Assembly: GCA_963825175.1 (NCBI GenBank)
Contig: CAWGSA010000002.1
Location: 2,270,346 to 2,334,345, forward strand
Reading direction: 5' to 3'
From: an uncultured Acidobacteriota bacterium
GTDB taxonomy: Bacteria; Acidobacteriota; Thermoanaerobaculia; UBA5066; Gp7-AA6
Length of the DNA: 64,000 nucleotides
Made by a program: the position numbers and the translations under genes. This document shows, piece after piece, positions 3,862 to 29,850 of the stretch (its first letter is position 1; each line of letters opens with the position of its first letter). The notes beneath the pieces were generated by a model that was given only the letters and a program-made list of their open reading frames with translations, was not told where the DNA came from and searched no databases.

Positions 3862-5636
3862 GCGTCGGGCCGCCTCGCGGCCACCACCTCCGCTTCGATG
3901 CGGCCCGCGCGGTTACGGCTCAATCGGAAGTGCGCTTCCATCGGCTCGCCCGGTCTGGATCCATCCAGCAAGTCGCGGCGCCAGCACAGGCAATCGAGGA
4001 CGCCCGCTCCTCGGCGCAGGCGGCCTCTGGCGCCCGAGTCTCCCAGATCCCGGAACGGCTCCGCGGCGACGACCGTGGCCTGGAAGACGGGACGCGGATT
4101 TCCCATCCCGTGCGGCTCGAACCGCTCCAGGTGGCGCATCAGCTCCTCGTCGATCTCCTCGATCGGCAGGAGGGCTTCCGCCTTTTCCACCCGTTCCAAA
4201 CTTTCCGAGTCGATCGCCGCGGCGAAGTGGCTCCGAGCCGCGTCGCGGAACGCGTCCCAATGGACTGCGGGCAGGCTGCCGCCCACGGCTTGATCGTGAC
4301 CTCCGAACTCCAGGAAGAACGACCCGACTTCTTTCAATGTCCCGTGCAGGGAGATGCCGGGAATGCTGCGGCCCGAACCGCTGGCCCGGTCACCTTCCAG
4401 GGCGAAGAGCAGAACCGGGCGGTTGTATTCCCGGGCCAGCCGCGAGGCGGCGATCCCCAGGACGCCGCGGTGCCATCCCTCCGCGCCCTCGACGATCACC
4501 GCGTCGCGGGCGGGATCGAACCAGCGATCGATCCGCTCGCGCGCCTGCGCGACGACACGCCGTTCGAGGCCCTGGCGCTGTGCGTTGCGCAGCGTCAGCT
4601 CCCGAGCGATCGCGGCGCCCCGAGCCTCGTCGCGCTCCTCGAACAACGAAAGGGCGAGCTCCGCCGTGTCCAGACGTCCCGCCGCGTTCAAGCGCGGAGC
4701 GATCCGAAAGGCGACCTCCTCGGACGTGGGTGCCCGCCCCGGCTCGATGCCGCACTCCGCCAGCAGCGCGCGGAGCCCTGGAGCGCGCGGGCGGGCCAGC
4801 GCCGCCAGGCCCGCGGCGGCGATCAGACGGTTTTCGCCGGTCAAGGGCACGAGGTCGGCGATCGTCCCCAGCGCCGCGGCCCGCAGGAGCGACTCCGGCG
4901 AGAGCGAGACCCCCGCGCGGTTCCCCACGGCGAGCGCGAGCTTCATCGCGATACCGCACGCGGCCAGATTCTTCTCGGGGTACTGGCAGCCCGGTTGCTT
5001 CGGGTTGACCACGATGGCGCCCGCCGGGAGCTCCTCCGGGACGAGGTGGTGGTCGGTGACGACCACGTCGACGCCCTGGGCCCGCGCGCACGCCACTCCT
5101 TCGATCGCGGTGATGCCGCAATCGACCGTCACGATGACGGCGGGATTCCATTGCGCCAGGACCCGCGCCACCGTCTCCGGCTTCAACCCGTAGCCATCCT
5201 TGAGGCGATGCGGGAGAAAAGCCACCGCGTCGGCGCCGGCGCGCACCAGGGCGGCTTTGAGCTGAGCGACGGCCGTCACGCCGTCCACGTCGTAGTCTCC
5301 GAACACGACGATCCGCCGGTGGGAATGGGCGGCGTGCGCGAGCAGCTCGGCCGCCTCGGAGGCGCCGGAGAGCAGCAGGGGGTCGTGAAACCCGCCCGCA
5401 TCGGGGCTGAAGAACCGCCGGGCGTCGTCGGGACCTTCCACACCCCGTGCCAGCAGGAGGGCGGCCACGACTCGGGGCACACCCGCGGATCGCGACAACC
5501 GGGCCAACTGATCGGGGTCGGGCGCGGCGACGCTCCAGCGAGGTCTCATCGCTCCCATTGTGCCTGCCGGTGGCGACAGATGCTGTCCATCCGCCGCGGG
5601 CGCGCCTCCGGCGCGGGGCTCGCGCGCGGCGCTCAC
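3858..5636 (-). CDS. recJ: Single-stranded-DNA-specific exonuclease RecJ
   Basis: DHH motifs [14 protein letters not shown] and VVVTDHH, plus a DHHA1 region. 592 aa. Confidence 0.9.
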
Positions 5637-6592
5637 GCCGTGGCGATCTCGAAGCGCCCGATGGAGCGGAACTTTCGGTAGCGCCGCTCGCGGCGTTCCT
5701 CGGGGGTCAGGTCGAGCAGGTCGCGCAGGTGCCGCTCGATCGCCTCCCCCACCGCCGACGCAGCGCCGGCCGGATCCGCGTGCGCTCCTCCCGGCGGCTC
5801 CGGCACGATCTCATCGATGACGTCGAGCTCCTGGAGATCCCGCGCCGTCAGCTTCATGGCCTCGGCCGCGTCCTTCTTGCGGGAGGCGTCCTTCCACAGG
5901 ATCGCGGCGCACCCCTCCGGCGTGATGACTGAATAGATCGAGTGCTCGAGCATCAAGACGCGATCTCCGATGCCCAGGGCCAGGGCTCCCCCCGAGCCGC
6001 CTTCCCCGGTGACGGTGACGATGATCGGCACGTGAAACGAGGCCATCTCGCGAAGGTTGACGGCGATGGCCTCGGCCTGACCGCGCTCCTCCGCGTCGAT
6101 TCCCGGGTACGCTCCCGCCGTGTCGATGAAGGAAAGAATCGGGCGGTTGAACTTTTCCGCCATTTGCATCACCCGCAAGGCCTTGCGATACCCCTCCGGC
6201 CGGGGCATTCCGAAGTTGCGCCGGATCTTTTCCTTCGTGTCCCGGCCCTTCTGGTGCCCAACGACGGCGACCGGGCGGCCCCGGAACCGGCCCACACCGG
6301 AAACGATGGACGGATCGTCAGCGAACTTGCGGTCCCCGTGCAGCTCCACGAAGTCCGAGATCAGGGCAGCGATGTAGTCGAGCGTGTAGGGCCGCGCCGG
6401 ATGCCGCGCCACCAGCGTCTTCTGCCACGGGGTCAGGTTCGCGTAGATCTCGCTCGACACGCGTTCCAGCCGCTCGCGCAGCTTTTCGATCTCACGCCGG
6501 TGGGTCGCGTCGTCGGGCAGCGCCGACAGCTCCTCGATCCTCCGGCGGAGCTTGACGATCGGTTCCTCGAACCCGCTCTCTTCGCCGTTCAT
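5633..6592 (-). CDS. accA: Acetyl-CoA carboxylase carboxyltransferase subunit alpha
   Basis: [22 protein letters not shown]...[38 protein letters not shown] is typical AccA. I prefer the ATG at 6592 over the TTG at 6631, because the 13 upstream codons are encoded by a heptamer repeat. Confidence 0.9.
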
Positions 6593-6595
6593 CGT

Positions 6596-6736
6596 GGAGT
6601 GACGAGTGACGAGTGACGAGTGACGAGACAAGCCAAAACGACCAAGAGTTGGGCTCTCATGGAGTCAAACGTAGTTTACTGGTCTTTCGGGCCGATTTCG
6701 CTTGTCACCGGCCACTCGTCACTTGTCACTGCTCAC
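6596..6736. repeat. Inverted tandem-heptamer element: (GAGTGAC)x4.4 at 6597-6627, about 75-nt core, inverse GTCAC-type units at 6703-6736
   Basis: It fills the whole priA-stop to accA-start interval. The left array ends 4 nt before the accA ATG, and the right array contains the priA stop codon. Confidence 0.7.
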
Positions 6737-9126
6737 ATCAGGTCCTGGGGATCGACGTCCGTGGCGATCTGCGTGCCGGCGGGAGCCCGTTCGGGCACAC
6801 ACGCTTCCAGCGCCGCCAGGAGCGCCTTTCGGTCCGCGGCGCGAAGGAGAATCTGAAACCGCCAACGCCCCTGCAGACGTTCCAGGGGAGCCGGAGCGGG
6901 ACCCGACAGGCGCACCCCCGTTGGCCCCCGTCGCGCGTCCACTCCGATCCGGGCCGCGGCGGCCTCGGCGCGGTCTCGATCCGCGGACGAGACCAGAATC
7001 TGCGCCATCTCGCAGAACGGGGGATAGAAGAAGGCGCGCCGGAACGCGAGCTCGTCGCCGGCGAAGCCGTCCACGTCGTGCGCCGCGGCCCGGCGGATCG
7101 CTGGATGCTGCGGATGAAACGTCTGCACGTGGACGGTCCCCGGACGGTCGCCCCGTCCGGCCCGGCCGGCCACCTGCGCCACCAGCTGGAACGTCTTCTC
7201 CGCGGACCGAAAATCCGGGAAGTTGAGCAGGGTGTCGGCGGAGAGGACGCCGACCGCGGTGACGTTGGGGAAGTCATGCCCCTTGGCGACCATCTGGGTT
7301 CCGATCAGGCACGAAACGCGCCCCGTCAGGACATCGTCGATCACCGCGGCCGCTCCGCCGCGGCGGCGGGCCGAATCGCGATCGAGGACGGCGTAAGCGA
7401 CGTCGGGAAACGCTTCCGCGAAACGATCGGCCACGCGCTCCGTTCCCGCCCCGACGGCTTCCAGCAGCGCTCCGCCGCAGTCCGGACACCGCGCCGGACG
7501 CGCCGACCGCTCGCCGCAGTAGTGGCACACCAGCGTGACGCCGCGGTCATGGACCGTCCGGCTCACGCTGCACCGGCCGCAGCGAAAATCGAAGCCGCAA
7601 TCCCGGCAGAGAAGCCTGGGCGCGAAACCGCGCCGGGGCTGGAGGAGGATGGCCTGCTCGCCGCGGGAAAAGACGTTCCTCAGACGATCGAGCAGGGGGC
7701 GCGAGAAGAGCGGCACGCCCTTTTCGTCCGCGCGGAAAGGCTCGCGCCGCAAATCGACGATTGCGACGTCGGGCAAGGGGCGGTCATCCACGCGAGACCG
7801 AAGCGGGAGCAGGAGCAGGCGCCCTTCCCGCGCCGAGTGCCACGCCTCCATGGACGGAGTGGCCGATCCGAACACGACCGCGGCGGCGGCGGCCCTGGCT
7901 CGGATCGCCACGACTTCGCGCGCATCGTAGCGCGGCGACTCCCGCTGCTTGTAGGAGGCGTCGTGCTCTTCGTCCACGACGAACAGTCCGGGATCGGAGA
8001 CCGGAGCGAACGCCGCGGAGCGAGGGCCGATCACCGCGCGGGCGTCCCCCGATCGCACGCGGTCCCAGGCCGCCGCGCGCTCGCGCTCCGACAGCGCGGA
8101 GTGAAGCACCGCGGCGCGGTCTCCGAACTGCCGGGAGAGCTCGCGGGCGAAGACGGGAGTCAGCGCGATCTCCGGCACCAGCCACACCGCCGCGCGTCCG
8201 GCCTCCAGGGCCGCGGCGATGGCCCTCAGATACACCTCCGTTTTTCCCGATCCGGTGACCCCTTGCAGGAGCGCCGGCAAGTAACGCCGCTGCCCGATCG
8301 CCGCGGTGAGCTCGTCCAGCGCGGCCTGCTGCTCGGGCGTGAGCCGGACGTCGCGCCGGGAGGTCGGCAGGACGGCGGCGATGTCCGGACGGCGCGGCTG
8401 CTCGAAGGCGAGAAGGAGAGCCCGGCGGCGGAGATCCTGGAGGACGGCGCGGCCAGCTCCCGTCTCGTTCTCGATCTCGTCGGCCGTGGCCGGACGGCCG
8501 ACCCCCTCGAGGAAGGCGAGCACGTCCGCCCCGCGCCGGCTCCGGCCCAGTCGGCGAGCGCGCTCGGATGGATCGACCCGTACCGGCGCATACCCCATCT
8601 CGACGCGCGGCCGCCGGGCGGAGCCGGAAACGACCCGGATCCAGCCGCGATCTTCCAGGGCCCGGAGCGCCTCCTGCCGTCCGCTCACGGCCAGGTCGAC
8701 CACGCGCGCCGGAGCGCCTCCGGCCAGGAGCTCGAGGATCTGACCCTCGGCGCCGGAGGCCTTTCCCAGCGCGCCTCTTTCGGTCAGGCGATAGTGAGCC
8801 GCTCCCGCCGCGGGCAGCCGGGCGGGCAGGGCACTGCGCAGCACCTCCCCGGTCGACGTGAAGAATCGCTGGGCGACCCGCTCCGCGGTTTCGAGCAGGT
8901 CGCTCGGGCACACCGGCTCCTCGTCGAGGACCTCCAGAACGTCCCGCAGGCCCTGCGCATCGTCGGCGCCGGATCCGACCACGACTCCGGTCAGGATCCG
9001 CTCGCCGAACGGGACGCGCACGCGCACGCCCGCCTCGGGCACGGAGATCGGTTCCGGGATTCGGTAGGAGAAGTTCCTCCGGATGGGCAGGGGCAGCGCG
9101 ACCGAGACAATTCGGGATCGGCTCAT
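6733..9126 (-). CDS. priA: Primosomal protein N' (replication restart helicase PriA)
   Basis: Walker [12 protein letters not shown], helicase motifs, and a C-terminal Cys-rich zinc region (CRDCGFDFRCGRC...CHYCG...CPDCG). 797 aa. Confidence 0.9.
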   Translation of the reverse strand: MSRSRIVSVALPLPIRRNFSYRIPEPISVPEAGVRVRVPFGERILTGVVVGSGADDAQGLRDVLEVLDEEPVCPSDLLETAERVAQRFFTSTGEVLRSALPARLPAAGAAHYRLTERGALGKASGAEGQILELLAGGAPARVVDLAVSGRQEALRALEDRGWIRVVSGSARRPRVEMGYAPVRVDPSERARRLGRSRRGADVLAFLEGVGRPATADEIENETGAGRAVLQDLRRRALLLAFEQPRRPDIAAVLPTSRRDVRLTPEQQAALDELTAAIGQRRYLPALLQGVTGSGKTEVYLRAIAAALEAGRAAVWLVPEIALTPVFARELSRQFGDRAAVLHSALSERERAAAWDRVRSGDARAVIGPRSAAFAPVSDPGLFVVDEEHDASYKQRESPRYDAREVVAIRARAAAAAVVFGSATPSMEAWHSAREGRLLLLPLRSRVDDRPLPDVAIVDLRREPFRADEKGVPLFSRPLLDRLRNVFSRGEQAILLQPRRGFAPRLLCRDCGFDFRCGRCSVSRTVHDRGVTLVCHYCGERSARPARCPDCGGALLEAVGAGTERVADRFAEAFPDVAYAVLDRDSARRRGGAAAVIDDVLTGRVSCLIGTQMVAKGHDFPNVTAVGVLSADTLLNFPDFRSAEKTFQLVAQVAGRAGRGDRPGTVHVQTFHPQHPAIRRAAAHDVDGFAGDELAFRRAFFYPPFCEMAQILVSSADRDRAEAAAARIGVDARRGPTGVRLSGPAPAPLERLQGRWRFQILLRAADRKALLAALEACVPERAPAGTQIATDVDPQDLM

Positions 9127-9164
9127 CCGGCGTTCAAATCATCCCGGGATCTCGAGCCCCGGTC

Positions 9165-9191
9165 CATCACCCGATGGCGGGATCACCCGAT
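9165..9191. repeat. Direct repeat ATCACCCGAT x2 (17-nt period) in the priA upstream region
   Basis: tccatcacccgatggcgggatcacccgatcgcccgat lies immediately upstream of the priA start (9126) on the minus strand. Possible operator or repeat. Confidence 0.4.
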
Positions 9192-9202
9192 CGCCCGATT
9201 CC

Positions 9203-9850
9203 TCACGTCTGAGCCGGGACGGGCGCCTCGTCGTCGTCCTCGTCGTCGCGCACGAAGACGTACGACCGGTGCACGGGATCCCACCGGTAGCGCCGCACCC
9301 CTTCGTCGGAGAGGTCCGGGGTGATGACGACCGCGTCCCGGTCGACGGAGAGGTCTCCCCGCGAAAGCGACACGTCGCGCTCGAGAAACGTCCCCGGGGA
9401 GTAGCCCCTGCCTCCGCCCCGTCCGGTGAAGATCACGACCGAGAACCAGGGCATGGCCCTGCTCGAATCGCGGTGCACGAAGGCCTGGATGAAGTCCAGG
9501 ACTCCGTCGTCGTTCAGATCGCCACGGACGAAATAAGGGTGGTACACGCCGTAGAGGCCCCGCACGTCGCCGTCTCCGCTGTGCGCGCCGTGCCGGTCCG
9601 AGTCGGTCGCCACGCGAAGCTCGGTGTGCCGGCTCAGAAATTCGTTCACCGCTTCCCTTTCGGCTTCGGAGAAGACATTGTTGCCGGGTCCGACCTGGGC
9701 GGCAGGGCCGGAGACCGGTTCCGGGGACGCGGGCGATTCGCGCCGCGCCGCTGCCCCCGCCCGCCCTGCCCGGCAGGCGACTCCCCTGTAGCCCAGGAGC
9801 GTCGCGGATGCGGCCAGCGCGAGAATCCAATGGATCTGAGATCGGCTCAA
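9203..9850 (-). CDS. Hypothetical secreted protein (signal peptide)
   Basis: N-terminal signal-like ILALAASATLLGY and an acidic tail, with no recognisable domain. Its codon composition is plausible for this genome. Confidence 0.45.
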   Translation of the reverse strand: MSRSQIHWILALAASATLLGYRGVACRAGRAGAAARRESPASPEPVSGPAAQVGPGNNVFSEAEREAVNEFLSRHTELRVATDSDRHGAHSGDGDVRGLYGVYHPYFVRGDLNDDGVLDFIQAFVHRDSSRAMPWFSVVIFTGRGGGRGYSPGTFLERDVSLSRGDLSVDRDAVVITPDLSDEGVRRYRWDPVHRSYVFVRDDEDDDEAPVPAQT

Positions 9851-9956: not shown

Positions 9957-11372
9957 TTGCAACGGAGACGTCACCCACGGGAGGTTTCGGTGCGGCAAGA
10001 GAGAGACAGCCTGGGAATCCGGGAGATCCCCGACGACGCGTACTGGGGGGCGCAAACGTCGCGGGCCATCGAGAACTACCCGATTTCCGGCGAGCGCGCG
10101 CATCCGGACATCGTCCGCGCGTACGCCCGCATCAAGAGGGCCTGCGGCGAGACCAACCACGAGCTGGGCGGCCTGGACGAAAGGAAGAAGACCGCGATCG
10201 TCGCCGCGTGCGACGAGATCCTGGACGGAAAGCTGGCCGACCAGTTCGTGGTCGACGTGTACCAGGCGGGCGCCGGAACGTCCTTCCACATGAACGTCAA
10301 CGAGGTGGTGGCCGGACGGGCGGCGGAACTCTTGGGGGCCGCGCGCGGCGACCGGTCCGCCGTCAATCCCAACGACGACGTCAACCTCGGCCAGTCCACC
10401 AACGACACCTTTCCGACGGCGCTTCACATGGCGGCCATCGCCGTCGGCCGCCAGCTGTCGAAGGAGATCGGGAGACTCGCGGCGTCGTTCGCGGCCAAGG
10501 GCGACGAGCTGGCCGGCGTGCTGAAGTCCGGACGGACGCACTTGATGGACGCCGTCCCGGTCACCCTGGGGCAGGAGTTTCGGGCTTTCGCCTCGGCGCT
10601 GGAGCACCGCCGAGAGGCGATCGATCGATCCCTGGACGGATTGCGCGAGCTCGCGTTGGGAGGCACGGCGGCCGGAACCGGGCTCAACACGGCGCCCGGC
10701 TTTCGGGATCGCGCGATCGCCCGCCTCTCGGCGCTCGCGGCCGAGAGCTTCACGCCCGCCGCGGACCCGCGCGAGGGCCTTCAGAGCCGCGCCGCGGCCG
10801 GCGACTACTCCGCCGCCCTGCGGGCGTTCTGCCTGGAGCTTTCGCGAGTGGCCAACGACCTGCGGCTGCTGGCGTCGGGCCCGGCGACGGGACTGGACGA
10901 GATCCGCCTGCCGGCGGTGCAACCGGGATCCTCGATCATGCCCGGCAAGGTCAACCCCTCGCTGCTCGAATGCCTGGGCATGCTCTGCTTCCAGGTCATC
11001 GGCTTCGACACCGCCAACGTCCTGGCGATCGGCGCGGGGCAGCTCGACTTGAACGTCATGATGCCGCTGCTCGCATACAACCTGACGCGGGGTCCTCAGC
11101 TGCTTCTCAACTTCCTCCCGGTGGTGCGCCAGAGGTGCGTGGACGGAATCCGGGCCAACGCCGAGAAATGCCGGCATTACCTGGAAGAATCCCCGTCCGT
11201 CATCACCGCCCTGACGCCCCGGATCGGCTACGCCAAAGCCGCGGAGATCTTCAAGGAGGCGGTGTCCCGCGGCGTGCGCGTGCGCCAGGTGATACTGGAA
11301 CGAAGAGTCGTGTCGGAAGAGGATCTCGACGCCGTGATGACCCCCGAAGTCCTGCTGGGCCCTTTGCGGTGA
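9957..11372 (+). CDS. aspA: Aspartate ammonia-lyase / class II fumarase family lyase
   Basis: Signature GSSIMPGKVNP and N-terminal RAIENYPIS, with DDAYWGAQT. The true start may be the GTG near 9990. Aspartase versus fumarase C cannot be settled by eye. Confidence 0.75.
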   Translation: MQRRRHPREVSVRQERDSLGIREIPDDAYWGAQTSRAIENYPISGERAHPDIVRAYARIKRACGETNHELGGLDERKKTAIVAACDEILDGKLADQFVVDVYQAGAGTSFHMNVNEVVAGRAAELLGAARGDRSAVNPNDDVNLGQSTNDTFPTALHMAAIAVGRQLSKEIGRLAASFAAKGDELAGVLKSGRTHLMDAVPVTLGQEFRAFASALEHRREAIDRSLDGLRELALGGTAAGTGLNTAPGFRDRAIARLSALAAESFTPAADPREGLQSRAAAGDYSAALRAFCLELSRVANDLRLLASGPATGLDEIRLPAVQPGSSIMPGKVNPSLLECLGMLCFQVIGFDTANVLAIGAGQLDLNVMMPLLAYNLTRGPQLLLNFLPVVRQRCVDGIRANAEKCRHYLEESPSVITALTPRIGYAKAAEIFKEAVSRGVRVRQVILERRVVSEEDLDAVMTPEVLLGPLR

Positions 11373-20301: not shown

Positions 20302-21410
20302 TTCCCCTCTCCCGCGCAACGGTGACGCCGGAAATGAAGCAGGCGATGCTCGACGTCGTCGACTCGGGGGTCTTCATCCTCGGCCCCGAGACGCGGGCCT
20401 TCGAGCAGGAGTTTGCCCGATCCATCGGCGTGCGCCATGCCGTGGCCGTCTCGCAGGGGACGTCCGCCATCCAGCTCTCTCTCCTGGCCATCGGGGTCCG
20501 CCCCGGCGACGAGGTGCTGGTTCCCGCGATGACCGCCTTCCCCACGATCGAAGGGATCGTGCACGCCGGTGCCACGCCGGTGTTCGCGGATATCGACGCC
20601 TTCGGCGCCATCGACCCCGGCGACGCGGCCAGGCGCCTGTCCCCGCGCACAATCGGGATCCTGCCGGTGCACCTGTACGGAGGCTCCGCCGACCTGCAGG
20701 CCCTGGCGTCGCTGGCCGCGGACCACAATCTCTGGATTGTGGAGGACTGCTGCCAGGCCCATGGAGCCCGGTTCCGGGAGAAGGCCGTGGGCGCGGTCGG
20801 CCGGGCCGGCTGCTTTTCCTTCTATCCTTCGAAGAACCTGACGGTCTTCGGCGACGGCGGCATGGTCACCACCGACGAGGACGCGATCGCGGACCGCGTG
20901 CGGCTCCTGCGCGACCACGGGCGGATCGACAAGTCCACCCATGCCGTCGTTGGCTTCAACCTGCGCTTCAACGAGATCCAGGCGGCGGTGGGGCGAAGGC
21001 AGCTTGCGCTGCTGGAGGAGTTCGTCGCGCGGCGGCGCCGGATCGCAGGGCGGTACGACGAAAGCCTCAACGAGATCGCGGGCGTCGGCATCCCTCGCGA
21101 ACGGCCCGGCACGCGGATGTCTTACCACCTCTACCCCATTGCGCTCGACAGCGAAACCACGCGGGACGGACTGCGGGATCACCTGAAGCGCCGGGGAATC
21201 GAGACCGGTATCCACTACCCGATCCCCAATCATCTCCAGCCGGCGATGTCGCAACGCGGCCACCCTCCGTCGCTGCCGGCGTCGGAAACCCTGGCCAAGA
21301 CGACCCTCTCCTTGCCGATGTTTCCAGGTCTCTCGGACGAAGACGTCGAGACGGTGATCGGCGCGATCGCCGAGTGTTTCGGCCAGGGCGCCGCTCTCAA
21401 GGCGCCGTAG
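20298..21410 (+). CDS. DegT/DnrJ/EryC1/StrS-family PLP aminotransferase (GnnB/WbpE-like)
   Basis: PSKNLTVFGDGGMVTTDE (PLP-lysine region), FNLRFNEIQAAVG, HYPIP. The ATG at 20298 overlaps the upstream stop. The 617-aa track ORF 19557..21410 is an over-extension. Confidence 0.8.
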   Translation: MIPLSRATVTPEMKQAMLDVVDSGVFILGPETRAFEQEFARSIGVRHAVAVSQGTSAIQLSLLAIGVRPGDEVLVPAMTAFPTIEGIVHAGATPVFADIDAFGAIDPGDAARRLSPRTIGILPVHLYGGSADLQALASLAADHNLWIVEDCCQAHGARFREKAVGAVGRAGCFSFYPSKNLTVFGDGGMVTTDEDAIADRVRLLRDHGRIDKSTHAVVGFNLRFNEIQAAVGRRQLALLEEFVARRRRIAGRYDESLNEIAGVGIPRERPGTRMSYHLYPIALDSETTRDGLRDHLKRRGIETGIHYPIPNHLQPAMSQRGHPPSLPASETLAKTTLSLPMFPGLSDEDVETVIGAIAECFGQGAALKAP

Positions 21411-23271
21411 CCGCGTTCTCCGCTTCCCGGCGGCCCCGAATCCATCGCCGGTACCACGCCTCGAGGTTCAAGAGCAGCCAGAGTTTGTTGTGGCGCCTCT
21501 GCGAGCTTCCCTCGACCAGGGCGCGCAGCGGCCGGGCCCGCACCAACCCGTCCGCGGCGAGGTCTCCCTTCTCCAGGATCGAGAGCGCCGTGTCGCGGTT
21601 GGCCCCCGAGACCCACCGCTTGAAGGGCGGAGAGAACCCGGCCTTGCTCCTCGTCAGGATCGCTTCCGGCAGCCATGGCCGAATCGCCTCCCGGAACGCG
21701 ATCTTGGTGGAGCCCGGAAAGACCAGCCGCTCCGGCGGCAGCGAAAATGCGTACTCCACGAGCTGGCGATCGAGCAGCGGGACGCGCGCCTCCAGGCCGA
21801 CGGCCATGGTCGACCGGTCGACCTGCATCAGGCCGTTGTCGGGAAGATAGGTGTGGACGTCCAGATACAGGAGCCGGTGGGCCAGCGGAAGGTCGGGGCG
21901 GTCGAACTTCCGGAAGAGCCACGCCGGATCCTCCGGCGCGCGGCCCGCCACGAGAGCCTGCTCGGCCGCGGTGAAGAATCCCCGCACCGGATAGTAGCGA
22001 TCGATGAACTCTCTCCCCGTGACGCGCGCCGCTCCGGCCAGTCGGGCAAGGCGCGGGCGCGCCGCGAGCGGTCCCAGGATGCCCCGATCGACCGCAGACA
22101 ACACCGGCCGGAACACGGCCAGGTTCTGACGCATCCGCTCGTACCGCATGACCGTCTCGTGCCATCCGTAGCCGCCGAAGATCTCGTCTCCGCCGTCGCC
22201 GGTCAGCACGACCTTGACCTCCGGCCTGGCCAGCGCCGCGACCTCGGCCACGGCCAGGGCGCTCGAATCGTAGAGCGGCTCGTCGTAGACCTCCGCGGCG
22301 CGAGCCAGGGCTCCGGCCAGGTCGCCGATCTCGACGATGCGTTCCGTGTGCTTCGTCCGGAACGCTGCCGCGGCGATACGGGCGTGCTCGAGATCGCTCC
22401 GGTCGCCGTCGCGGTACGCGATGGTATAGGTCGGCAGGCCGGGGGTGGCTTGGGCCGCGCGGCCGACGACGGTGGACGAATCGAGCCCGCCCGAGAGGAA
22501 CGCTCCGACCGGCACGTCGGACACCAGGTGGGATCGCACCGCGCGATCCAGCCGTTCGCGCAGCTCCTCCGGGTCGTCGCGGACGCTCTGCCTCTCGAGC
22601 CTCCAGAAGGAAGCGACCTCCACGCGCCCGCTTTCTGCGTCGAAGATCAGCCGATGGGCGGCGGGGAGCTTGAAGATGCCGGCGAAGATCGAGCGATCGT
22701 CCGGAACGTATCCGTACGAGAGAAAATCCGAGAGCGCGGTCGGGTCCGGACGCGCGGAAACACCGGGGAGCGCCAAGAGCGCCTTGGGCTCGGACGCGAA
22801 GGCCAGTCCCCGCGGCAGCCTGGTCCAGTACAAGGGCTTGATTCCGATTCGGTCCCTGGCCAGGAGGAGCCGTCGCTCACGCTCGTTCCAAAGTGCCAGG
22901 GCGAACATGCCCTCGACGCGGGAGAGCGCTTCGTCTCCGTCGCGCCTCAATAGCCGATGAACCACCTCGCCGTCGCTCTGGGAGACGAAGCGCTCTCCGG
23001 CCGCCTCCAGCTCCTCGCGCAGCGAGCGGAAGTTGTAGACCTCGCCGTTATGGATGAAGGCGGACCCGCCGTCGGGAGCGACCGATGGCTCCTCTCCCCG
23101 GATGGACGGATCGAGAATGGCCAGCCGCCGGTGGCCGAGCATGGCCCGCCCGTCCGGCGAGAGCCACCGTCCACTCCCGTCGGGCCCGCGGCGCCGCAGA
23201 GTGGAGATCGCGCGGTCCAGGGCCTCCGCGTCGATCCGCTCGACGGAGATCCAACCGGCGATGCCGCACAT
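21397..23271 (-). CDS. asnB: Asparagine synthase (glutamine-hydrolysing), AsnB family
   Basis: N-terminal MCGIAGW (Cys2 class-II amidotransferase) and the PP-loop SGGLDSS. 624 aa. Its 3' end overlaps the convergent aminotransferase by 14 nt. Confidence 0.85.
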   Translation of the reverse strand: MCGIAGWISVERIDAEALDRAISTLRRRGPDGSGRWLSPDGRAMLGHRRLAILDPSIRGEEPSVAPDGGSAFIHNGEVYNFRSLREELEAAGERFVSQSDGEVVHRLLRRDGDEALSRVEGMFALALWNERERRLLLARDRIGIKPLYWTRLPRGLAFASEPKALLALPGVSARPDPTALSDFLSYGYVPDDRSIFAGIFKLPAAHRLIFDAESGRVEVASFWRLERQSVRDDPEELRERLDRAVRSHLVSDVPVGAFLSGGLDSSTVVGRAAQATPGLPTYTIAYRDGDRSDLEHARIAAAAFRTKHTERIVEIGDLAGALARAAEVYDEPLYDSSALAVAEVAALARPEVKVVLTGDGGDEIFGGYGWHETVMRYERMRQNLAVFRPVLSAVDRGILGPLAARPRLARLAGAARVTGREFIDRYYPVRGFFTAAEQALVAGRAPEDPAWLFRKFDRPDLPLAHRLLYLDVHTYLPDNGLMQVDRSTMAVGLEARVPLLDRQLVEYAFSLPPERLVFPGSTKIAFREAIRPWLPEAILTRSKAGFSPPFKRWVSGANRDTALSILEKGDLAADGLVRARPLRALVEGSSQRRHNKLWLLLNLEAWYRRWIRGRREAENAATAP

Positions 23272-23273
23272 GA

Positions 23274-23363
23274 CGCGTGAGGCGCGAGGGGTTAGGCGTG
23301 AGGCGTGGAAAGGCCGAGACCAGTGCTTCGCCTCACGCCTTACGCCTTACGCCTTACCTCACG
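23274..23363. repeat. Inverted tandem-heptamer element: (GCGTGAG)-type units, 22-nt core, (CCTCACG/CCTTACG)x4
   Basis: It fills the interval between the stop of the small membrane gene (23359) and the asnB ATG (23271). The right array contains that stop codon. Confidence 0.7.
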
Positions 23364-24766: not shown

Positions 24767-26545
24767 CTATTCCTTGGACCCGGAGTCTTCCGCTTTCTTG
24801 CGGGAGCGCTTCTTTTTCGGCGCGGGGGACTCTGCCGCCGGCTCCGCGGGAGGCTCCGCGGGAGGCTCCGCCGTCTCGGCCGGAGGGGGTAGCGCCTCCG
24901 CGGCTGCTTCCGCGCCGACCGCGGAGAGGCCAACCTTCATCTCGGCGTCATCGATGCGGAGGATTCGGGCGCGGACGGACGATCCTTCCTGAAAGTGTTC
25001 CTGGGGCTTGGCGCCGCGGGAAAGACCGGTTTCCGAGACGTGCATCAGACCTTCGACCAGGCCGTCGATCTGGACGAAGACGCCGAAATCCGCCACCCGC
25101 GTCACCGTTCCTTCGACGACTTCGCCCACCTCGTGCTTCTCCTTGAACGCCTGCCAGTCGTTGGGCTGAAATTCCTTGATGGAGAGGGAAATGCGGCGAT
25201 TCTCCTGATCGATCGACGTGATGATCGCGTCGACGTCGTCCCCTTTCTTGAGGACCTCGGACGGATGCTTGATGCGCTTGGTCCAGGACATGTCCGAGAC
25301 GTGGACCAGACCGTCCACGCCCTCTTCGATCTCGACGAACGCGCCGAAGTCCGTCAGATTCCGCACCTTCCCGTGCACCCGGCTCCCGACCGAGTACTTT
25401 TCCACCACGGTGTCCCAGGGATCGGGGAGCGTGTCCTTGAGCGAGAGCGAAATGCGGCGGGCTTCCGGATTGACGTCAGAGACCACGGCCTCGACGGTGT
25501 CTCCGGGGGAGACGACCTTGGACGGATTTTTCACCTTCTTCGACCACGACATCTCCGAAACATGGACCAGGCCTTCCACGCCTTCCTCCAATTCCACGAA
25601 GGCGCCGTAGTCGGTGACGTTTGTCACGCGCCCGGTCACGCGCGAGCCGGGCGGATAACGCTCCGGCACATGCGACCAGGGATCCTCGGTGAGCTGCTTG
25701 GTTCCGAGCGAGACGCGCTCCGTCTCCCGGTCGAACTTCAAGACGACGACGTCGATCTCGTCGCCGACCTTGACCAGGTCCGACGGGTGGTTGACGCGCC
25801 CCCACGACATGTCGGTGACATGGAGCAATCCGTCCAGGCCGCCCAGGTCGACGAAGGCGCCGTAGTCGGTCAGGTTCTTGACCACACCGCGCAGGACCCG
25901 GCCCTCTTCCAGAAGCTGCAGGGTTTCCTTCTTCTTTGCTTCCTGCTCGATCTCGACGACAGCCTTGCGCGACAGCACGATGTTGCCCCGCTTCTTGTCG
26001 ACCGAGATGACCTTGAACTCGAGCTCCTTGCCCCGCAGTGCCTCGAGGTTCTTGACCGGTTTGACGTCCACCAGCGAGCCCGGCAGGAACGCCTTCACGC
26101 CGATGTCGACGGCCAGACCTCCCTTGATCCGATCGATGACGCGGCCCTTCACGGTCGAGCCCGAGCGGTACGATTTCTCGACTTCGTCCCACACCTTCAT
26201 CTTCTCGGCTTTGTCCTTGGACAGGACGACGTAGCCGTTCTGGTCTTCGGTGCGCTCGAGCAGGACATCGACCGCATCGCCGGGATGAACCATCACCGTT
26301 CCGGAGAAATCGGTGAATTCGGAGATCGGAATGATGCCTTCCGATTTGTAGCCGATATCGACGATGACTTCGGAGGGAGTGACCGAGAGAACTCGCCCTC
26401 GGATGATCTGGCCTTCCTGCAGGTTCTTGAAGGAGTTCTCGTACTGGGCCAGGAGATGCTCGTATTCCTGGGGCGATAGTTCCTGATCTACTTCCATTGA
26501 ATCGGTTTCCCGACCTCCTTTGTCCTTTTCAGCCGTCATGGGCAA
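24767..26545 (-). CDS. rpsA: 30S ribosomal protein S1
   Basis: Six S1 domains (repeated GxV..V.DFGAFV..GLVH(V/I)S(E/D)MSW motifs) and a C-terminal basic tail. The start may be an internal Met. Confidence 0.9.
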   Translation of the reverse strand: MPMTAEKDKGGRETDSMEVDQELSPQEYEHLLAQYENSFKNLQEGQIIRGRVLSVTPSEVIVDIGYKSEGIIPISEFTDFSGTVMVHPGDAVDVLLERTEDQNGYVVLSKDKAEKMKVWDEVEKSYRSGSTVKGRVIDRIKGGLAVDIGVKAFLPGSLVDVKPVKNLEALRGKELEFKVISVDKKRGNIVLSRKAVVEIEQEAKKKETLQLLEEGRVLRGVVKNLTDYGAFVDLGGLDGLLHVTDMSWGRVNHPSDLVKVGDEIDVVVLKFDRETERVSLGTKQLTEDPWSHVPERYPPGSRVTGRVTNVTDYGAFVELEEGVEGLVHVSEMSWSKKVKNPSKVVSPGDTVEAVVSDVNPEARRISLSLKDTLPDPWDTVVEKYSVGSRVHGKVRNLTDFGAFVEIEEGVDGLVHVSDMSWTKRIKHPSEVLKKGDDVDAIITSIDQENRRISLSIKEFQPNDWQAFKEKHEVGEVVEGTVTRVADFGVFVQIDGLVEGLMHVSETGLSRGAKPQEHFQEGSSVRARILRIDDAEMKVGLSAVGAEAAAEALPPPAETAEPPAEPPAEPAAESPAPKKKRSRKKAEDSGSKE

Positions 26546-26629
26546 GAGAGTCCCCTCTCATAAGTATTTGAAGTCCAAAGGCATATCCTAGTGCGGCCCG
26601 GCGAGTCGAGTCAAATGCGGCCCGGCCCC

Positions 26630-27307: not shown

Positions 27308-28107
27308 TTGGGACGGGGTCCGCGTTTGGATGCCGGAGTGTCCCCCGCTCTCCCACTCCCCCCCTCTCCCCCTCCGAGGCTCGAACGCAGCGCCCGCACC
27401 TCCGCCTCGGTGAGCCTTCGCACCGCGCCCACCGGCAGCCGCTCATCGCGGATCGGGCCGACTGCAACCCGGCGCAGCTTCGAGACGGGATGGCCGATGG
27501 TCTCGAACATGCGGCGGATCTGCCGGGTTCTTCCTTCGCGCAGCTCGACGCGCAGCCAGCTGTTGCCCTCTTCCCGGCCGCGGGTGGTCGACAGCCTCTC
27601 GATCAAGGCCGGCCGCGTCCGCTGGCCGTCGAGGAAGATCCCCCGCCGCAGTCGTTCGAGGTCCTTCTCGGACGGCACTCCGGACACCTTCACGCGATAC
27701 TCCTTGGGACAGCCCGTCGAGGGATGCGTGACGAGTCGGGCCAGGTCACCGTCGTCGGTCAAGAGGAGCAGCCCCTCCGTCTGCACGTCCAGCCGGCCCA
27801 CCGGTTTGACGCCTCGGCGCAGATTGATCGGCAAGAGATCCATGACCGTGTCCCGCCGTTCGGGATCCGAGAGCGCCGTGACGTAGCCCCGCGGCTTGTT
27901 CAAGAGCAGAAAGGTCCTCGCTCCGGCACGGGAGGCCACGCGCTTGCCGTCGACCTTGATCGAGTCGCGCAGGGGATCGGCGCGATCTCCCAGCTGCGCG
28001 AGGCGTCCGTTGAGCCGGACCCGGCCTTCCCGGATCCAGCCCTCCGCTTCCCGCCGTGAAGCGAGGCCGGCCTCGGAAAGGATCTTCTGGAGTCGCGCAG
28101 TCGCCAT
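27304..28107 (-). CDS. rluB: Pseudouridine synthase, RsuA/RluB family
   Basis: N-terminal S4 domain RLQKILSEAGLASRREAEGWIREGRVRLNG and catalytic GRLDVQTEGLLLLTDDG. Confidence 0.8.
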   Translation of the reverse strand: MATARLQKILSEAGLASRREAEGWIREGRVRLNGRLAQLGDRADPLRDSIKVDGKRVASRAGARTFLLLNKPRGYVTALSDPERRDTVMDLLPINLRRGVKPVGRLDVQTEGLLLLTDDGDLARLVTHPSTGCPKEYRVKVSGVPSEKDLERLRRGIFLDGQRTRPALIERLSTTRGREEGNSWLRVELREGRTRQIRRMFETIGHPVSKLRRVAVGPIRDERLPVGAVRRLTEAEVRALRSSLGGGEGGSGRAGDTPASKRGPRPK

Positions 28108-28179: not shown

Positions 28180-28920
28180 CTATTCCCCGCCGTCCTCCTC
28201 GTCCTCTGCGTCGTCGTCGCCTTCTTCTTCGTCGTCCTCGTCGTCGTCCCAGTCCTCGTCGTCGGCCTCTTCGGCCGCAGCGGTCACGGCAGGCGCCAGA
28301 GAGGACTCGGGCGCGAGCGCGTCATCGCCGACCGTCGCGGCGAGATCCTCCTCGATCTCTTCGGGCTTGGGCAGCTCCTCGATGTCGTTCAACCCGAACC
28401 GGACCAGGAAGTCCGACGTGGTCCGATAGTAGAAGGGAGTTCCCACCACCGGTTTCTTGCCCGCCGTCGTGACGAGCTTCTTCTCGAACAGCGTCTTCAG
28501 GACGGATGAGGAGTTGACGCCCCGGATCTCCTGGATCTCCGGCAGCGTGATCGGCTGGCGGTAGGCGATGATGGCGAGCGTCTCCAGGGCCGCGAGGGAG
28601 AGGCGGCTCCTCTCGGTCACGTCGTGGAAACGGCGCAGCAGCGAGTCGAACTCCGGCCGGGTGACGAACCGCCATCCCCCCGCGACCTGCTCGAGCCGGA
28701 CGCCGCGCTCGGACGTGTCCGCCGCGGCGGCGAGCGTCGACAACGCCGCCTGGACCGCCTCGCGCGTCGCGTCCAGGACGTCGGCCAGATCCTTCTCCGA
28801 GACCGGCCGGGGAGAGGAGAAGAGCAGAGCCTCCAGGGCCGGCCGGATCCTCTCCGCCCTCGTCTCGCGCGGGCGCTCGGGCTCGGAGGGAGCGCCGGCG
28901 GAGGGCTCGGGTTCTTGCAT
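28180..28920 (-). CDS. scpB: Segregation and condensation protein B
   Basis: ALEALLFSSPRPVSEKDLADVL is the ScpB winged-helix. It has an acidic D/E tail and lies downstream of scpA. Confidence 0.8.
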   Translation of the reverse strand: MQEPEPSAGAPSEPERPRETRAERIRPALEALLFSSPRPVSEKDLADVLDATREAVQAALSTLAAAADTSERGVRLEQVAGGWRFVTRPEFDSLLRRFHDVTERSRLSLAALETLAIIAYRQPITLPEIQEIRGVNSSSVLKTLFEKKLVTTAGKKPVVGTPFYYRTTSDFLVRFGLNDIEELPKPEEIEEDLAATVGDDALAPESSLAPAVTAAAEEADDEDWDDDEDDEEEGDDDAEDEEDGGE

Positions 28921-28940
28921 CGGGGTCTCGGTAGGGAGTT

Positions 28941-29037
28941 CTAGCTAGGACGTTCGACGTTCGAAGGCTTCCGTCCCGACGTTCCGCCTCGCGTTGCGCT
29001 CCGCACAACGTAGAACCTAGCACGTCGAACGTCGCAC
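28941..29037. repeat. Inverted tandem-heptamer element: (GACGTTC)x2, about 55-nt core, (GTCGAAC)(GTCGCAC)
   Basis: It lies in the scpA-stop to scpB-start intergenic region. More ACGTT-type units occur in the core. Confidence 0.6.
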
Positions 29038-29038
29038 T

Positions 29039-29805
29039 TCACCTGTAGGTGTCGCGCACCCGGCCGACGTCGAAGGCCACCTCGGTCCGGTGCACATGAA
29101 TTTCGCCAAACGCCACGGCTTGGAAGGCGCTCACGACCCCGAGCCGGATGAGCTCGAGCGTGGCCAGGAAGGCGGTGACGGCCTCCGCGCGGTACGCCAT
29201 GTGACCCAGAAACTCGAGCAGCGGCAGGTCGCGTCCCGATTCGTCCAGGCGCGCCACCAGATCGATCATCTTGTCCGCGACCGAGAAGCGCAGATGATGG
29301 ATCTCCATGGCCGGGGGGTGCGCCAGGCGATAGCGGTCGGTGACCTTGCGAAAGACGTCGATCAGGTCGAACAACGAGACTTCCAGAGTTTCGCCGTCGG
29401 CCGACCGCGGAATCTCCGTCGCCGGGCGCGGCCAAAGCCCCGCGCGCAGGTTGTCGATCTCGTGGAACGACTCGGCGGACTTCTTGTACCGCTCGTATTC
29501 CAGCAGGCGACGGGCCAGCTGCTGGCGCGGATCCTCCTCCGGCTCTCCCGGCGCGCGCGGCAGGAGCATCTTGGACTTGATGTAGATCAACTCCGCCGCG
29601 AGGGCGATGTAATCCGAGGCCACGTCCAGATCGAGCTCGCGCATGGCGTCGAGATAGCGGGTGTATTGCTCGGTGATCTCCGCCATCGGGATGTCGGTGA
29701 TCGAGACCTGATTGACGCGGATCAGGTGGAGCAGAAGGTCCAGCGGCCCGGAAAACGCGGCAATCTCGACGGGCGGGAGGGCGGACGGGGACTCGTCGTC
29801 GGTCA
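29039..29805 (-). CDS. scpA: Segregation and condensation protein A
   Basis: FSGPLDLLLHLIRVNQVSITDIPMAEITEQY is the kleisin ScpA N-terminus. I prefer the ATG near 29805. The track's upstream GTG at 29851 would read through the CGCCTCA repeat. Confidence 0.8.
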
Positions 29806-29820
29806 TGGACGGCGCGGGCT

Positions 29821-29850
29821 TCGCCTCACCCCTGACAGCTTCACGCCTCA
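29821..29850. repeat. Direct heptamer array (CGCCTCA)x2.5 plus degenerate units, the reverse complement of CGTGAGG
   Basis: tcgcctcacccctgacagcttcacgcctcacgcctcacga between the trpS stop and the scpA start. The trpS stop codon is inside it. The same unit occurs at 23274-23307 and 61699-61727. Confidence 0.6.

Follow-up and report, generated by a model that had tools for sequence, protein, structure and literature searches.

The 64-kb window analyzed here (the whole stretch of 64,000 nucleotides, from a soil acidobacterium of the Thermoanaerobaculia type with 68% G+C) features a series of intergenic gaps with tandem arrays of 7-8 nt units, and the question arises of what these arrays are, how they came to lie there and whether they affect the neighboring genes. 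The first-pass annotation had described a common design consisting of an array, a core and the reverse-complement array, and this design is indeed seen across loci. Repeats are present at 8/8 of the loci it listed, whereas one further array at 9166-9199 had been overlooked. Gene boundaries and the census of gaps in the window are based on our own codon-score calls; the product lengths of accA, scpA and ldcA agree with database proteins. The clade sample comprises about 172 kb from four genomes. Compared were four related genomes with 84-89% protein identity, whose corresponding gaps contain arrays as well, in many cases built from another unit. The two closest AccA relatives show 89% identity.

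Unless noted otherwise, all features described in the following lie on the minus strand. Element E1 (6593-6735) takes up the entire gap from priA to accA. On the mRNA strand its 5' arm (6735-6701) contains NNAGTGA five times, in phase with the priA stop codon TGA (6733-6735), and is followed by a core (6700-6628) and by a 3' arm (6627-6597) of 4.4 exact GTCACTC units that stops 4 nt short of the accA ATG at 6592. The unit family is also found after asnB in L163. The array at 9166-9199 is a direct 8-mer array with 4.2 copies of GNGATCGG, which begins 3 nt past the stop codon (9203-9205) of the ORF preceding priA; L083 has an orthologous array of this family, and the family appears at other loci in L163 and L167. 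E2 (23272-23361) likewise occupies an entire gap, here between a 65-aa ORF and an asnB-like gene. Its 5' arm (23361-23329) includes the stop codon and is composed of TGAGG, three exact TAAGGCG units and TGAGGCG. A core (23328-23308) separates it from five ACGCCTC-type units in the 3' arm (23307-23272), which runs up to the ATG (23271). In the orthologous gap, L161 has the identical unit and L163 another one.

E3 (28921-29041) resides in the scpA-to-scpB gap, where the units GTGCGAC, GTTCGAC, GTGCTAG and GTTCTAC after the stop codon (29039-29041) make up the 5' arm, and two GAACGTC units plus CTAGCTAGAAC the 3' arm, with another 28 nt to the scpB ATG (28920). Only the 5' half is kept in L161. 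Nearby, a direct array of about five TGAGGCG-family units (29807-29859) includes the trpS stop codon (29855-29857) and takes up all the space from there to the scpA ATG (29806); L161 and L163 have inverted GGGAAAC/GTTTTCC arrays there instead. E4 (39575-39661) is situated downstream of recG. Its TGACGGGG/TGATGGGC arm takes in the stop codon (39652-39654), while the complementary arm, which ends at 39575, is rich in CCCCGTC, and some 60 nt with a GGAGG Shine-Dalgarno sequence separate the element from the start of the epimerase gene. An array at this place had been seen correctly, but its period is 8 (about 16 in the other arm) and not the heptamer first assigned. Period-8 arrays occur in this gap in 3/3 genomes compared, with a different unit in L163. 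The arms of E5 (43426-43508) consist of three AGGTCGA-type and four to six CCTTGGA-type units. This array, too, is present as described earlier, but it follows the 3' end of the RNase P RNA gene (43530-43910, Rfam match) instead of a stop codon, lying between a small hairpin just 3' of that gene and an ldcA-like start (TTG at 43415). L168 has a GCTGAGA-type inverted array in the orthologous gap and L167 none. Between tRNA-Gln and prs, an exact direct array (61699-61731; 4.7 copies of ACGCCTC on the mRNA strand) shares its unit with E2 and the array at 29807-29859, and 30 nt of it match L163 16353-16382 with 100% identity. A repeat had also been named at 57005-57027; it exists, but it is a weak array of just 2.1 CGTTACG copies (57005-57019, no strand assigned) in the gap that follows rplI (57117-57575, minus strand), and no family match was found for the flanking ORF.

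The prediction that the elements fold into long hairpins holds best for E1 (-64.8 kcal/mol, z = -6.3 relative to shuffled sequences) and E2 (-51.3 kcal/mol, z = -5.9), both far better than the shuffles; in E2 the stop and start codons are paired at the stem base. E3-E5, folded with their flanks, reach z = -0.8 to -2.0. Arrays were called with TRF and compared to 100 third-order Markov simulations of 64 kb, and the idea that inverted heptamer arrays exceed chance is borne out by a wide distance. Twelve period-7 arrays were observed versus 3.84 +/- 1.9 expected (maximum 9), eight of at least three copies versus 0.84 +/- 0.81 (maximum 3), and three strict inverted pairs versus 0.02. Exact runs of at least three copies number three for period 7 and 0-2 for any other period from 4 to 15. 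Gap DNA accounts for about 10% of the window yet houses 10/12 of the period-7 arrays. When pairs are counted as the same unit close together on opposite strands, there are five in the window and ten in the relatives. Arrays of period 7-8 with at least three copies amount to 25 per 100 kb in the clade, as opposed to 4.7 in near relatives and 2.6 in other bacteria. One array is identical in 81/81 nt between L161 and L162, an independent Logan assembly of a relative, and the arrays are therefore not assembly artefacts. Since the 7-8 nt units directly abut, while CRISPR arrays have repeats of 23-55 nt between unique spacers of similar length, a CRISPR array is ruled out on anatomy, as the first-pass annotation had already stated.

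The elements lie immediately 3' of a gene, following either a stop codon or, with RNA genes, the gene end, and in many cases they take up all the space to the next start signals. In the clade, with L166-L168 tallied as well, arrays are present in 26 of about 82 gaps between co-directional genes, whereas 2-3 of the 8 convergent gaps and none of the 11 divergent ones are occupied. Among the stop-proximal arrays, 20/21 begin at most 7 nt from the stop codon or include it. The placement between a stop and the next start described before is correct, though not for E5. Non-coding upstream neighbors are rnpB in the window and L168 and tRNA genes in L088. Several elements are located within probable operons (scpA-scpB, HEAT-DUF4097).

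Related genomes have arrays in these gaps too, but the sequence of the unit changes between them. The recG-epimerase, trpS-scpA, small-ORF-asnB, x-priA and priA-accA gaps each hold arrays in 3/3 genomes compared, with different units, and even the core sequences differ among orthologs. By contrast, no array is seen in any cmk-rpsA gap, whose sequence is 90% conserved over 125 nt. The direction of the unit changes cannot be polarised by phylogeny because the window, L161 and L163 are mutually equidistant (84-86% ScpA identity). At the same time, the unit families are limited in number and turn up again at gaps that are unrelated to one another. For unit sharing we relied on exact-unit counts and a chance model; single-linkage clustering at one mismatch or less was dropped since it merges unrelated families. 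The TGAGGCG unit is found at four independent loci in the clade sample, three of them in the window, and in the chance model with 30 random loci, any unit reaches four or more of them with a probability of 0.0013, which becomes 0.017 for TGA-anchored units. GGGAAAC is present at two loci in L163. At least ten unit families exist in the 172 kb, and no motif common to all of them was found.

In many elements one of the arms is a perfectly homogeneous array, and this brings in an alternative that relies on slippage only: every gap would have generated its own long simple-sequence repeat, starting from the stop codon and the bases beside it, with no movement between loci, and shared units would be convergent. 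Exact arrays confined to one arm, as in E1 and E2, and exact direct arrays (window 61699, L163 16353, L164 7446) agree with it, and equally with slippage as a part of the preferred reading given below, as do arrays traceable to one local unit copy and the seeds visible in the HEAT-DUF4097 gap and the rluB tail. In the latter, a G-rich stretch at the 3' end of rluB (27341-27375) contains single copies of GGGGACAC and CCCCGTC that are expanded in L161 to inverted 8-mer arrays inside the ORF, and these single copies look like probable seeds of arrays. Outside arrays, the heptamers occur as single copies at background frequency, again as expected from slippage in place; seeding from a heptamer abundant throughout the genome was rejected because such single copies are not over-represented. 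Stop triplets are part of 9/23 5'-arm units by our count, compared to about 15% expected. Since a TGA stop anchors many of the units, some of the sharing could be convergent; under the stop-anchored model 3.1 matching unit pairs arise by chance on average, and six or more in 11% of trials. Still, the TGAGGCG-family arrays at window 61699 and L163 16353 adjoin no stop codon. Slippage alone also sits badly with two families that are alike beyond the repeated unit. The copies of family F, in the recG-epimerase gap of L163 and the yacP-rnpB gap of L167, agree in both arms, at the beginning of the core and in a CCGATTGG terminus. Family G links E3 to the priA-accA gap of L166 through 31 nt of the 5' arm (about 84% identical) and the junction AGCCTTC..GAACGTC. 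Furthermore, L163 carries a 116-nt element between two genes that overlap each other in the window and in L161. The distribution is patchy among equally close relatives, with zero arrays in 21 kb of L165, and the corresponding gaps of sister lineages contain identical palindromes of 35 nt. We therefore regard slippage as the sole cause as unlikely.

These palindromes, found in L004, L081 and L082 and absent from the window, are REP-like and start 0-5 nt past stop codons in the x-priA and priA-accA gaps, the very gaps that hold arrays in the window's clade; L081 contains two identical gap copies. Together with the recurrence of unit families at non-orthologous gaps in four genomes, they lend support to the early suggestion of a non-autonomous mobile or recombinogenic element. 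We estimate at slightly better than even the chance that the elements are dispersed REP/REPIN-like intergenic hairpins whose arms are tandem 7-8 nt arrays, usually of about four copies each. The annotators had seen no obvious resemblance to REP, BIME or ERIC sequences, but the likeness to REP/REPIN is closer than that. Like the REP, BIME and REPIN elements of proteobacteria, the elements are dispersed, intergenic and located 3' of genes, form inverted pairs that give long hairpins, comprise several families per genome and turn over rapidly at orthologous sites, and the palindrome of the sister lineages in the same gaps is a typical 35-nt imperfect one. They differ in that the arm is a tandem array rather than a single palindromic REP unit and lacks an internal palindrome; a conserved REP head motif was not found in them. 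Presumably, replication slippage expands and homogenises the units in place, and a copying or mobilisation step, as for REP elements, would move elements between gaps. The sharp boundaries would then reflect purifying selection, which protects the coding sequence at one end of the element and start, Shine-Dalgarno or -10 signals at the other. We found neither a transposase nor a target-site duplication nor a conserved terminal motif for the elements, none of the Pfam hits listed for about 110 kb of relatives is a RAYT transposase, and inspection revealed no flanking direct duplication at E1-E5 or the family F and G copies. The inverted arms are reminiscent of a MITE, but no target-site duplication is seen; as to the internal sequence, cores differ between orthologs, and partial core or junction sequence is shared within families F and G.

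The elements are best read as members of the bacterial heptanucleotide repeats, i.e. long simple-sequence repeats of the STRR type, a class for which over-representation in intergenic DNA was described as early as 2007 (Mrazek et al., cited by PMC4679880 and PMC4692102). Accordant with this, tandem units in the window exceed chance and are mainly intergenic. As to recurrence of a unit within one genome, TGAGGCG is present at three loci in the window, which covers 64 kb of a 2.9-Mb genome, and GGGAAAC at two in L163. In Geobacter metallireducens, GGGACCG is repeated four times at 49 loci and MTYCTGA five times (PMC2700814), and the TAACTGA arrays of Beggiatoaceae (PMC4679880) lie a few nt from start codons that lack ribosome-binding sites. 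These heptamers and the cyanobacterial STRR/GGGGAYT repeats resemble ours in having 2-6 copies, one unit at several loci, mostly intergenic positions and TGA in many units. However, they are almost all direct arrays (169 direct sets versus one indirect in the Maribeggiatoa genome), and inverted pairing, stop anchoring and the filling of whole gaps are unreported for them. Our literature search retrieved nothing on heptamer repeats in Acidobacteria or on STRR together with heptanucleotide.

On the best reading, the nearest kin described so far are pairs of convergent GGGAATC arrays in Xanthomonas (Rehm et al., 2015, PMC4692102), objects of the same kind that serve as a precedent. There are 70-75 such pairs per genome, most commonly with four units and on average 28 nt from the upstream ORF; 89-93% of the arrays are intergenic, mostly between co-directional genes, and pairs are rare in divergent gaps. 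From one related species to the next the arrays differ in length and sequence, but single arrays stay single and paired ones paired (PMC4692102). High G+C content, tandem 7-nt units in about four copies, opposite-strand pairs able to form stem-loops, closeness to the upstream ORF and avoidance of divergent gaps are thus common to both systems. In our case, though, there are ten or more families, most without G-tracts and some of 8-mers, the distance to the stop is 0-7 nt or the stop is included, and the arrays often extend to the next start codon. The single G-rich family of Xanthomonas was interpreted as G-quadruplex-forming (PMC4692102). A few G-rich families (GGACGGGG, GGGAAAC, GGGAGTT) might tempt one to transfer the idea of G-quadruplexes or other non-B DNA to the present elements; most units (e.g. 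GAGTGAC, TGAGGCG, GACGTTC, GCTGAGA, TTGTGAT) have no GGG and hence do not conform to a quadruplex-capable GGGNNNN x4, with the same architecture and placement. G-quadruplexes are rejected on these anatomical grounds, and we consider an identity of the elements as non-B DNA extremely improbable.

This bears on a wider issue, as origin and function of heptanucleotide repeats are unsettled despite their recognition since 2007, and the one study that dealt with inverted pairs in detail invoked G-quadruplexes. Since the same architecture, copy number and placement are realized here with non-quadruplex units, that explanation is not general. What sets the present elements apart are stop-abutting arrays of ten or more 7-8-mer families, inverted pairs among them. 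The same gaps in close relatives hold one heptamer family, another one, a REP-like palindrome or nothing, a natural comparison that makes it testable what moves the elements and what they do to neighboring genes.

As to the latter, transcribed elements would form hairpins of -30 to -65 kcal/mol. REPs act as mRNA 3' stabilisers and attenuators, and because of this role we infer that the hairpins may similarly serve the upstream gene as a barrier to 3' exonucleases or as a partial terminator in a REP/BIME-like manner, and may occlude the initiation region of the downstream gene. With a stem end no more than 10 nt away from the start codon, the downstream gene would then need read-through, and unwinding by ribosomes that terminate upstream, to be expressed. 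Any such effect at the RNA level would probably be a consequence or an exaptation and not the reason why the elements exist. Intrinsic terminators share with them the G+C-rich stem-loop right after a gene, but stems of 25-50 bp are far above typical terminator length, and a scan of the sense strand of E1 and E2 detected neither a T-tract nor a sigma-70 promoter. A canonical intrinsic terminator, one of the roles originally considered, is thus unsupported because the T-tract is absent. No element matches an Rfam family at gathering thresholds or at E values up to 0.1; even then the only matches in the window are the RNase P RNA and a tRNA. The arms co-vary imperfectly. Among 14 elements no signature of a sense-strand RNA became apparent in G-U versus A-C asymmetry or in sense versus antisense folding energy: G-U pairs are equally frequent in the antisense (41/446) and sense fold (40/450) and the sense strand folds better in 7/14, so there is no selection signature on transcript structure.

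It is conceivable, as in the first-pass annotation, that the arrays offer binding sites to a sequence-specific RNA- or DNA-binding protein, for example of the S1, CSP or CsrA type, as proposed for the TAACTGA repeats of Beggiatoaceae. The regular copy number of about four, the purine-rich tendency of the 5' arms (14 versus 5 by our count) and a position just before start codons, as in PMC4679880, would fit. At least ten unit families in 172 kb without a single common motif and the replacement of units at orthologous sites speak against it, and this option appears highly unlikely to us.

A further possibility is a selected device for translational coupling or attenuation in which the hairpin joins stop and start codon, the terminating ribosome melts the outer repeats, and a downstream gene without Shine-Dalgarno sequence is translated only after melting, by shunt-like reinitiation, with the copy number tuning the coupling. 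Geometry is in its favor: besides the paired codons of E2, the stop and start codons of E1 lie 2 and 4 nt from the stem base, and in 10/15 inverted elements the 3' arm ends at most 10 nt from the next start. Gap occupancy is conserved, and a precedent is reported from Haemophilus influenzae (PMC12721329), where heptamer copy number acts via 5'-UTR structure and RNase III. On the other hand, coupling is impossible for elements in convergent gaps or after the non-coding rnpB and tRNA genes, several elements finish about 60 nt ahead of an ordinary Shine-Dalgarno sequence, and a sense-strand G-U bias is missing. We regard a selected coupling device as very unlikely. We judge it quite unlikely as well that a hitherto unrecognised class of mobile REPIN-like hairpins homes to the positions directly 3' of stop codons and RNA genes, that its members replace one another there and that, by bringing upstream stop and downstream start together, they impose shunt-like termination-reinitiation coupling on genes without a Shine-Dalgarno sequence or a promoter of their own.

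Neither accA nor the asnB-like gene of the window has a Shine-Dalgarno sequence or a -10 box, in line with coupling, but genes without Shine-Dalgarno sequence are the rule in this genome. Such a sequence is present in just 15/58 called genes, and the first-pass statement that arrays stand in place of it was overstated. Many window genes have a TAnAAT box 7-12 nt ahead of the start, which suggests leaderless transcripts. In prs a TACAAT box is kept between the array and the TTG start, adjoining the former and 8 nt before the latter. In the case of the essential gene accA, the conserved leaderless promoter box of the relatives appears to have been lost to a recently expanded array.

The minus strand carries nearly all genes of the window, which has a G+C content of 64-72% and encodes AccA, ScpA and other proteins with 79-89% identity to those of uncultured soil Thermoanaerobaculia (Acidobacteriota). 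With flanking genes named by NCBIfam, hairpin elements with arms of tandem 7-8-nt units occupy the gaps between priA (6733-9126) and accA (5633-6592), termed E1 (6593-6735), between a small ORF and an asnB-like amidotransferase gene (21397-23271), termed E2 (23272-23361), and between scpA (29039-29806) and scpB (28180-28920), termed E3 (28921-29041). E4 (39575-39661) follows recG, which ends at 39652 with an SDR epimerase gene next, and E5 (43426-43508) separates the Rfam-predicted RNase P RNA gene rnpB (43530-43910, minus strand) from an ldcA-like peptidase gene (42486-43415). Repeats are present at every locus listed in the first-pass annotation, with the corrections that the unit at E4 (39575-39662) has period 8 rather than 7, that E5 lies 3' of the RNase P RNA gene and not after a stop codon, and that the array at 57005 exists but is weak; an array at 9166-9199 had been missed. 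TRF detected 12 period-7 arrays in the 64 kb versus 3.84 +/- 1.9 in 100 third-order Markov simulations, which also yielded 0.84 arrays with at least three copies (observed: 8) and 0.02 strict inverted pairs (observed: 3). Exact runs of at least three copies numbered three for period 7 and zero to two for each other period from 4 to 15. The proposed hairpins are borne out by mRNA-strand RNA folding of E1 (-64.8 kcal/mol, z = -6.3) and E2 (-51.3 kcal/mol, z = -5.9); E3-E5, folded with flanks, gave weaker z-scores and clear long stems. One relative's element is base-for-base the same in an independent Logan assembly. The arrays are real, locally abundant and associated with the 3' ends of genes.

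Read along the mRNA, the 5' arm starts at the stop codon. In E1 the TGAs of NNAGTGA x5 keep the phase of the priA TGA, the TGA of the small ORF provides the first bases of TGAGG-TAAGGCG x3-TGAGGCG in E2, and that of recG opens TGACGGGG-TGATGGGC in E4. The stop-to-start placement claimed earlier holds: 20 of 21 stop-proximal arrays from five genomes include the stop or start at most 7 nt from it, and of 15 inverted elements, 10 have a 3' arm that reaches to within 10 nt of the following start codon. Shine-Dalgarno sequences or TAnAAT boxes, where present, are kept directly outside the array (epimerase GGAGG, prs (60719-61675) TACAAT, accA TACAAT in L164 and TACACT in L166, two related contigs). 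A stop triplet occurs within 9 of 23 5'-arm units by manual count, versus about 15% expected from composition, and combined with the 7-nt period this places stops in all three frames. Commonly, one arm is perfectly homogeneous and its partner degenerate, e.g. exact GTCACTC x4.4 opposite NNAGTGA variants in E1 and exact TAAGGCG x3 opposite ACGCCTC variants in E2, which means that the arms expand independently.

The most informative result came from syntenic DNA of three relatives, genomes B (L161 and L167; ScpA identity 86%), C (L163, L164 and L168; ScpA 84%, AccA 88%) and D (L166; AccA 86%): orthologous gaps are occupied in each genome, often by a different unit. Four gaps were sampled in B and C, with D outside the sample. 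Between recG and the epimerase gene, the window contains TGACGGGG, genome B a direct GGGGGGAC array and genome C TTCATCGG x4 / CCGATGAA x4. From trpS to scpA, direct TGAGGCG in the window corresponds to inverted GGGAAAC / GTTTTCC in B and C; from the small ORF to asnB, TRAGGCG is found in the window and B and GGGAAAC in C; and from rnpB to ldcA, the window has AGGTC-type units, B none and C GCTGAGA-type units. Two further gaps were sampled in C and D, with B outside. Between priA and accA, AGTGAC / GTCACTC in the window is matched by CCGTCAG / GCTGAGA in C and by GTGCGAC-type arms round a nested 250-nt insert in D, and between x, the ORF upstream of priA, and priA itself, GNGATCGG is matched by GGGAGTT x4 in C and CTCAGCG / AGCTGAC in D. 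This sets them apart from ordinary regulatory gaps: cmk-to-rpsA (26498-26629) matches L161 13178-13290 at 90% identity over 125 nt, never carries an array and probably represents a conserved regulatory region or rpsA leader. In genomes with database gene calls, with L166-L168 tallied by hand, 18 of the 53 co-directional gaps of at least 20 nt hold arrays; convergent gaps do so in about 2 of 5 cases and divergent ones in 0 of 4. For the window, the counts are about 8/29, 1/3 and 0/4, respectively. The insert in D (L166 9680-9925, about 250 nt) is highly structured, sits within the loop of the heptamer hairpin, has its own inverted ends (TGCTGAAAAAGG... / ...CCATTTTTCAGCA) and is without Rfam match. 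L168 contains an 841-aa ORF (6807-9332) without Pfam match between yacP and rnpB that is extra compared with the window and L167.

Unit families recur across loci. TGAGGCG/CGCCTCA has three loci in the window and one in L163, 16353-16382, where 30 nt are 100% identical to window 61699-61731; AGTGAC/GTCACT occurs in E1 and 3' of asnB in L163, and GGGAAAC at two L163 loci. The NCATCGG 8-mer family is present in the x-to-priA gap of the window, the recG-to-epimerase gap of L163 and the yacP-to-rnpB gap of L167, the latter two also having the core start and a terminal CCGATTGG in common. The GTGCGAC/GTTCTAG family links scpA-to-scpB of the window with priA-to-accA of L166 through 31 nt of arm and the AGCCTTC..GAACGTC junction. 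Since alignments between tandem repeats are artificially long, exact heptamers were used to model how much sharing would arise by chance: 30 random loci gave 1.1 expected matching pairs and P = 0.0013 for a unit at four or more loci, and units anchored on TGA plus four bases gave 3.1 and 0.017. The observed sharing thus exceeds chance, though some of it may reflect convergence, and as single copies the heptamers show no over-representation. Local growth can be seen as well. The TTTGTGA x5 array of L161 is an extension of a TTGCGAT that the window has as a single copy, and inverted 8-mer arrays GGGGACAC / CGTCCCCG (L161 12360-12445) lie within the 3'-terminal part of the rluB ORF, the product being 25 aa longer; the window's rluB tail (27341-27375) is G-rich only, with single GGGGACAC and CCCCGTC copies matching these arrays. 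A 116-nt element of L163 takes up a position at which the window and L161 have overlapping genes. Such growth would be in keeping with slippage alone, devoid of dispersal, which we consider unlikely: families at non-orthologous gaps favour the mobile or recombinogenic reading of the first-pass annotation.

Arrays of at least three copies number 25 per 100 kb in the clade, 4.7 in more distant relatives (79-84% AccA identity) and 2.6 in other bacteria; related contig L165 has zero in 21 kb. The more distant relatives feature a 35-nt imperfect palindrome, GTCGCGGGGACAGGTCC-TGC-GGACCTGCACCCGCC, in the x-to-priA and priA-to-accA gaps (L004 3925-3958 and 9902-9940; L081 7440-7474 and 9909-9943, identical copies; L082 7499-7531), 0-5 nt 3' of the stop codon in every copy. 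This is a typical dispersed REP-like family. L083 has an NCATCGG 8-mer array between x and priA, orthologous to that of the window. Palindrome or arrays in the same gaps mark the site just 3' of these stops as a niche, whose occupant differs by lineage, either a REP-like palindrome or array hairpins of changing family. The architecture is not confined to this clade, as inverted heptamer-array hairpins occur in unrelated metagenome contigs, between two tRNA genes (L088 81-161) and with a 5-nt loop (L128 9007-9073), and a Nitrospirae MAG (L010) has seven period-7 arrays within 13.7 kb. In-frame heptamer arrays are also seen in dnaE coding sequences (L128 7135-7167, L093 9255-9285, L010 4087-4116); those of two soil contigs are in the same linker, encoding PQLPAPSSRLP and TPVPRPSSPLP, and that of the Nitrospirae MAG is TTCAGCC x4.3.

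Gap occupancy is kept while the unit turns over, families recur across loci, and arms are homogenised internally. With moderate confidence we favour a combined reading in which units would be expanded locally by slippage, elements would pass from gap to gap by some form of copying or mobilisation, and the boundaries would be set by selection on coding sequence and start signals. Once transcribed, the elements may act as REP/BIME-like hairpins, serving the upstream message as a partial terminator or barrier and occluding the downstream initiation region; a stem abutting the start would couple downstream expression to read-through and upstream translation. The terminator suggested in the first-pass annotation fared less well, the sense strands of E1 and E2 containing neither a T-tract terminator nor a sigma-70 promoter, and the Rfam search proposed there matched no element to a known family. 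Sense and antisense folds contain G-U pairs at equal rates (40/450 and 41/446), and the sense strand folds more stably in only 7 of 14 elements, so nothing shows selection on transcript structure specifically. Shine-Dalgarno sequences precede 15 of 58 called window genes, and many carry a TAnAAT box 7-12 nt ahead of the start (e.g. starts 46759, 53218, 53269, 60700 and 61675), which suggests that the lineage commonly makes leaderless transcripts. In all 11 relatives examined (L001-L004, L081-L084, L164-L166), accA is preceded by a box of this kind at 6-12 nt; accA of the window has lost it and has in its place the GTCACTC array, which is young since it is exact. A device selected for coupling would suit arms reaching start codons, and we regard it as improbable; elements 3' of non-coding genes and in convergent gaps mean that a purely translational role cannot be general.

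Among known systems, the GGGAATC arrays of Xanthomonas come closest, with a mode of four units, 70-75 convergent pairs and 89-93% intergenic location near the upstream ORF, rarely in divergent gaps (PMC4692102). Related direct-array systems are GGGACCG x4 at 49 loci of Geobacter metallireducens (PMC2700814), cyanobacterial STRRs and Beggiatoaceae TAACTGA repeats (PMC4679880); a bacterial heptamer excess was reported by Mrazek et al. 2007, as cited in PMC4679880 and PMC4692102. Our elements differ in their many unit families, 8-mers besides 7-mers, stop-codon anchoring with whole-gap filling, demonstrated unit replacement at orthologous sites and a REP-like palindrome in equivalent position in sister lineages. 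Protein-binding arrays are quite improbable given this replacement, and G-quadruplexes, which a few G-rich families would suit, are hardly credible with families mostly lacking G-tracts. The searchable literature yielded no account of repeats of this type in Acidobacteria, and the elements represent a variation on a repeat kind already known yet unexplained.

A 95-nt tRNA-Pro called by ARAGORN within a fumarase-type gene (10307-10401, minus strand) is probably a false positive because Rfam, which places tRNA-Gln at about 61953-62028, finds no tRNA at that site. Two coding repeats, CTTCTC x6.3 (59978-60015) and a period-3/30 repeat forming the acidic scpB tail (28188-28273), resemble ordinary low-complexity protein tails.
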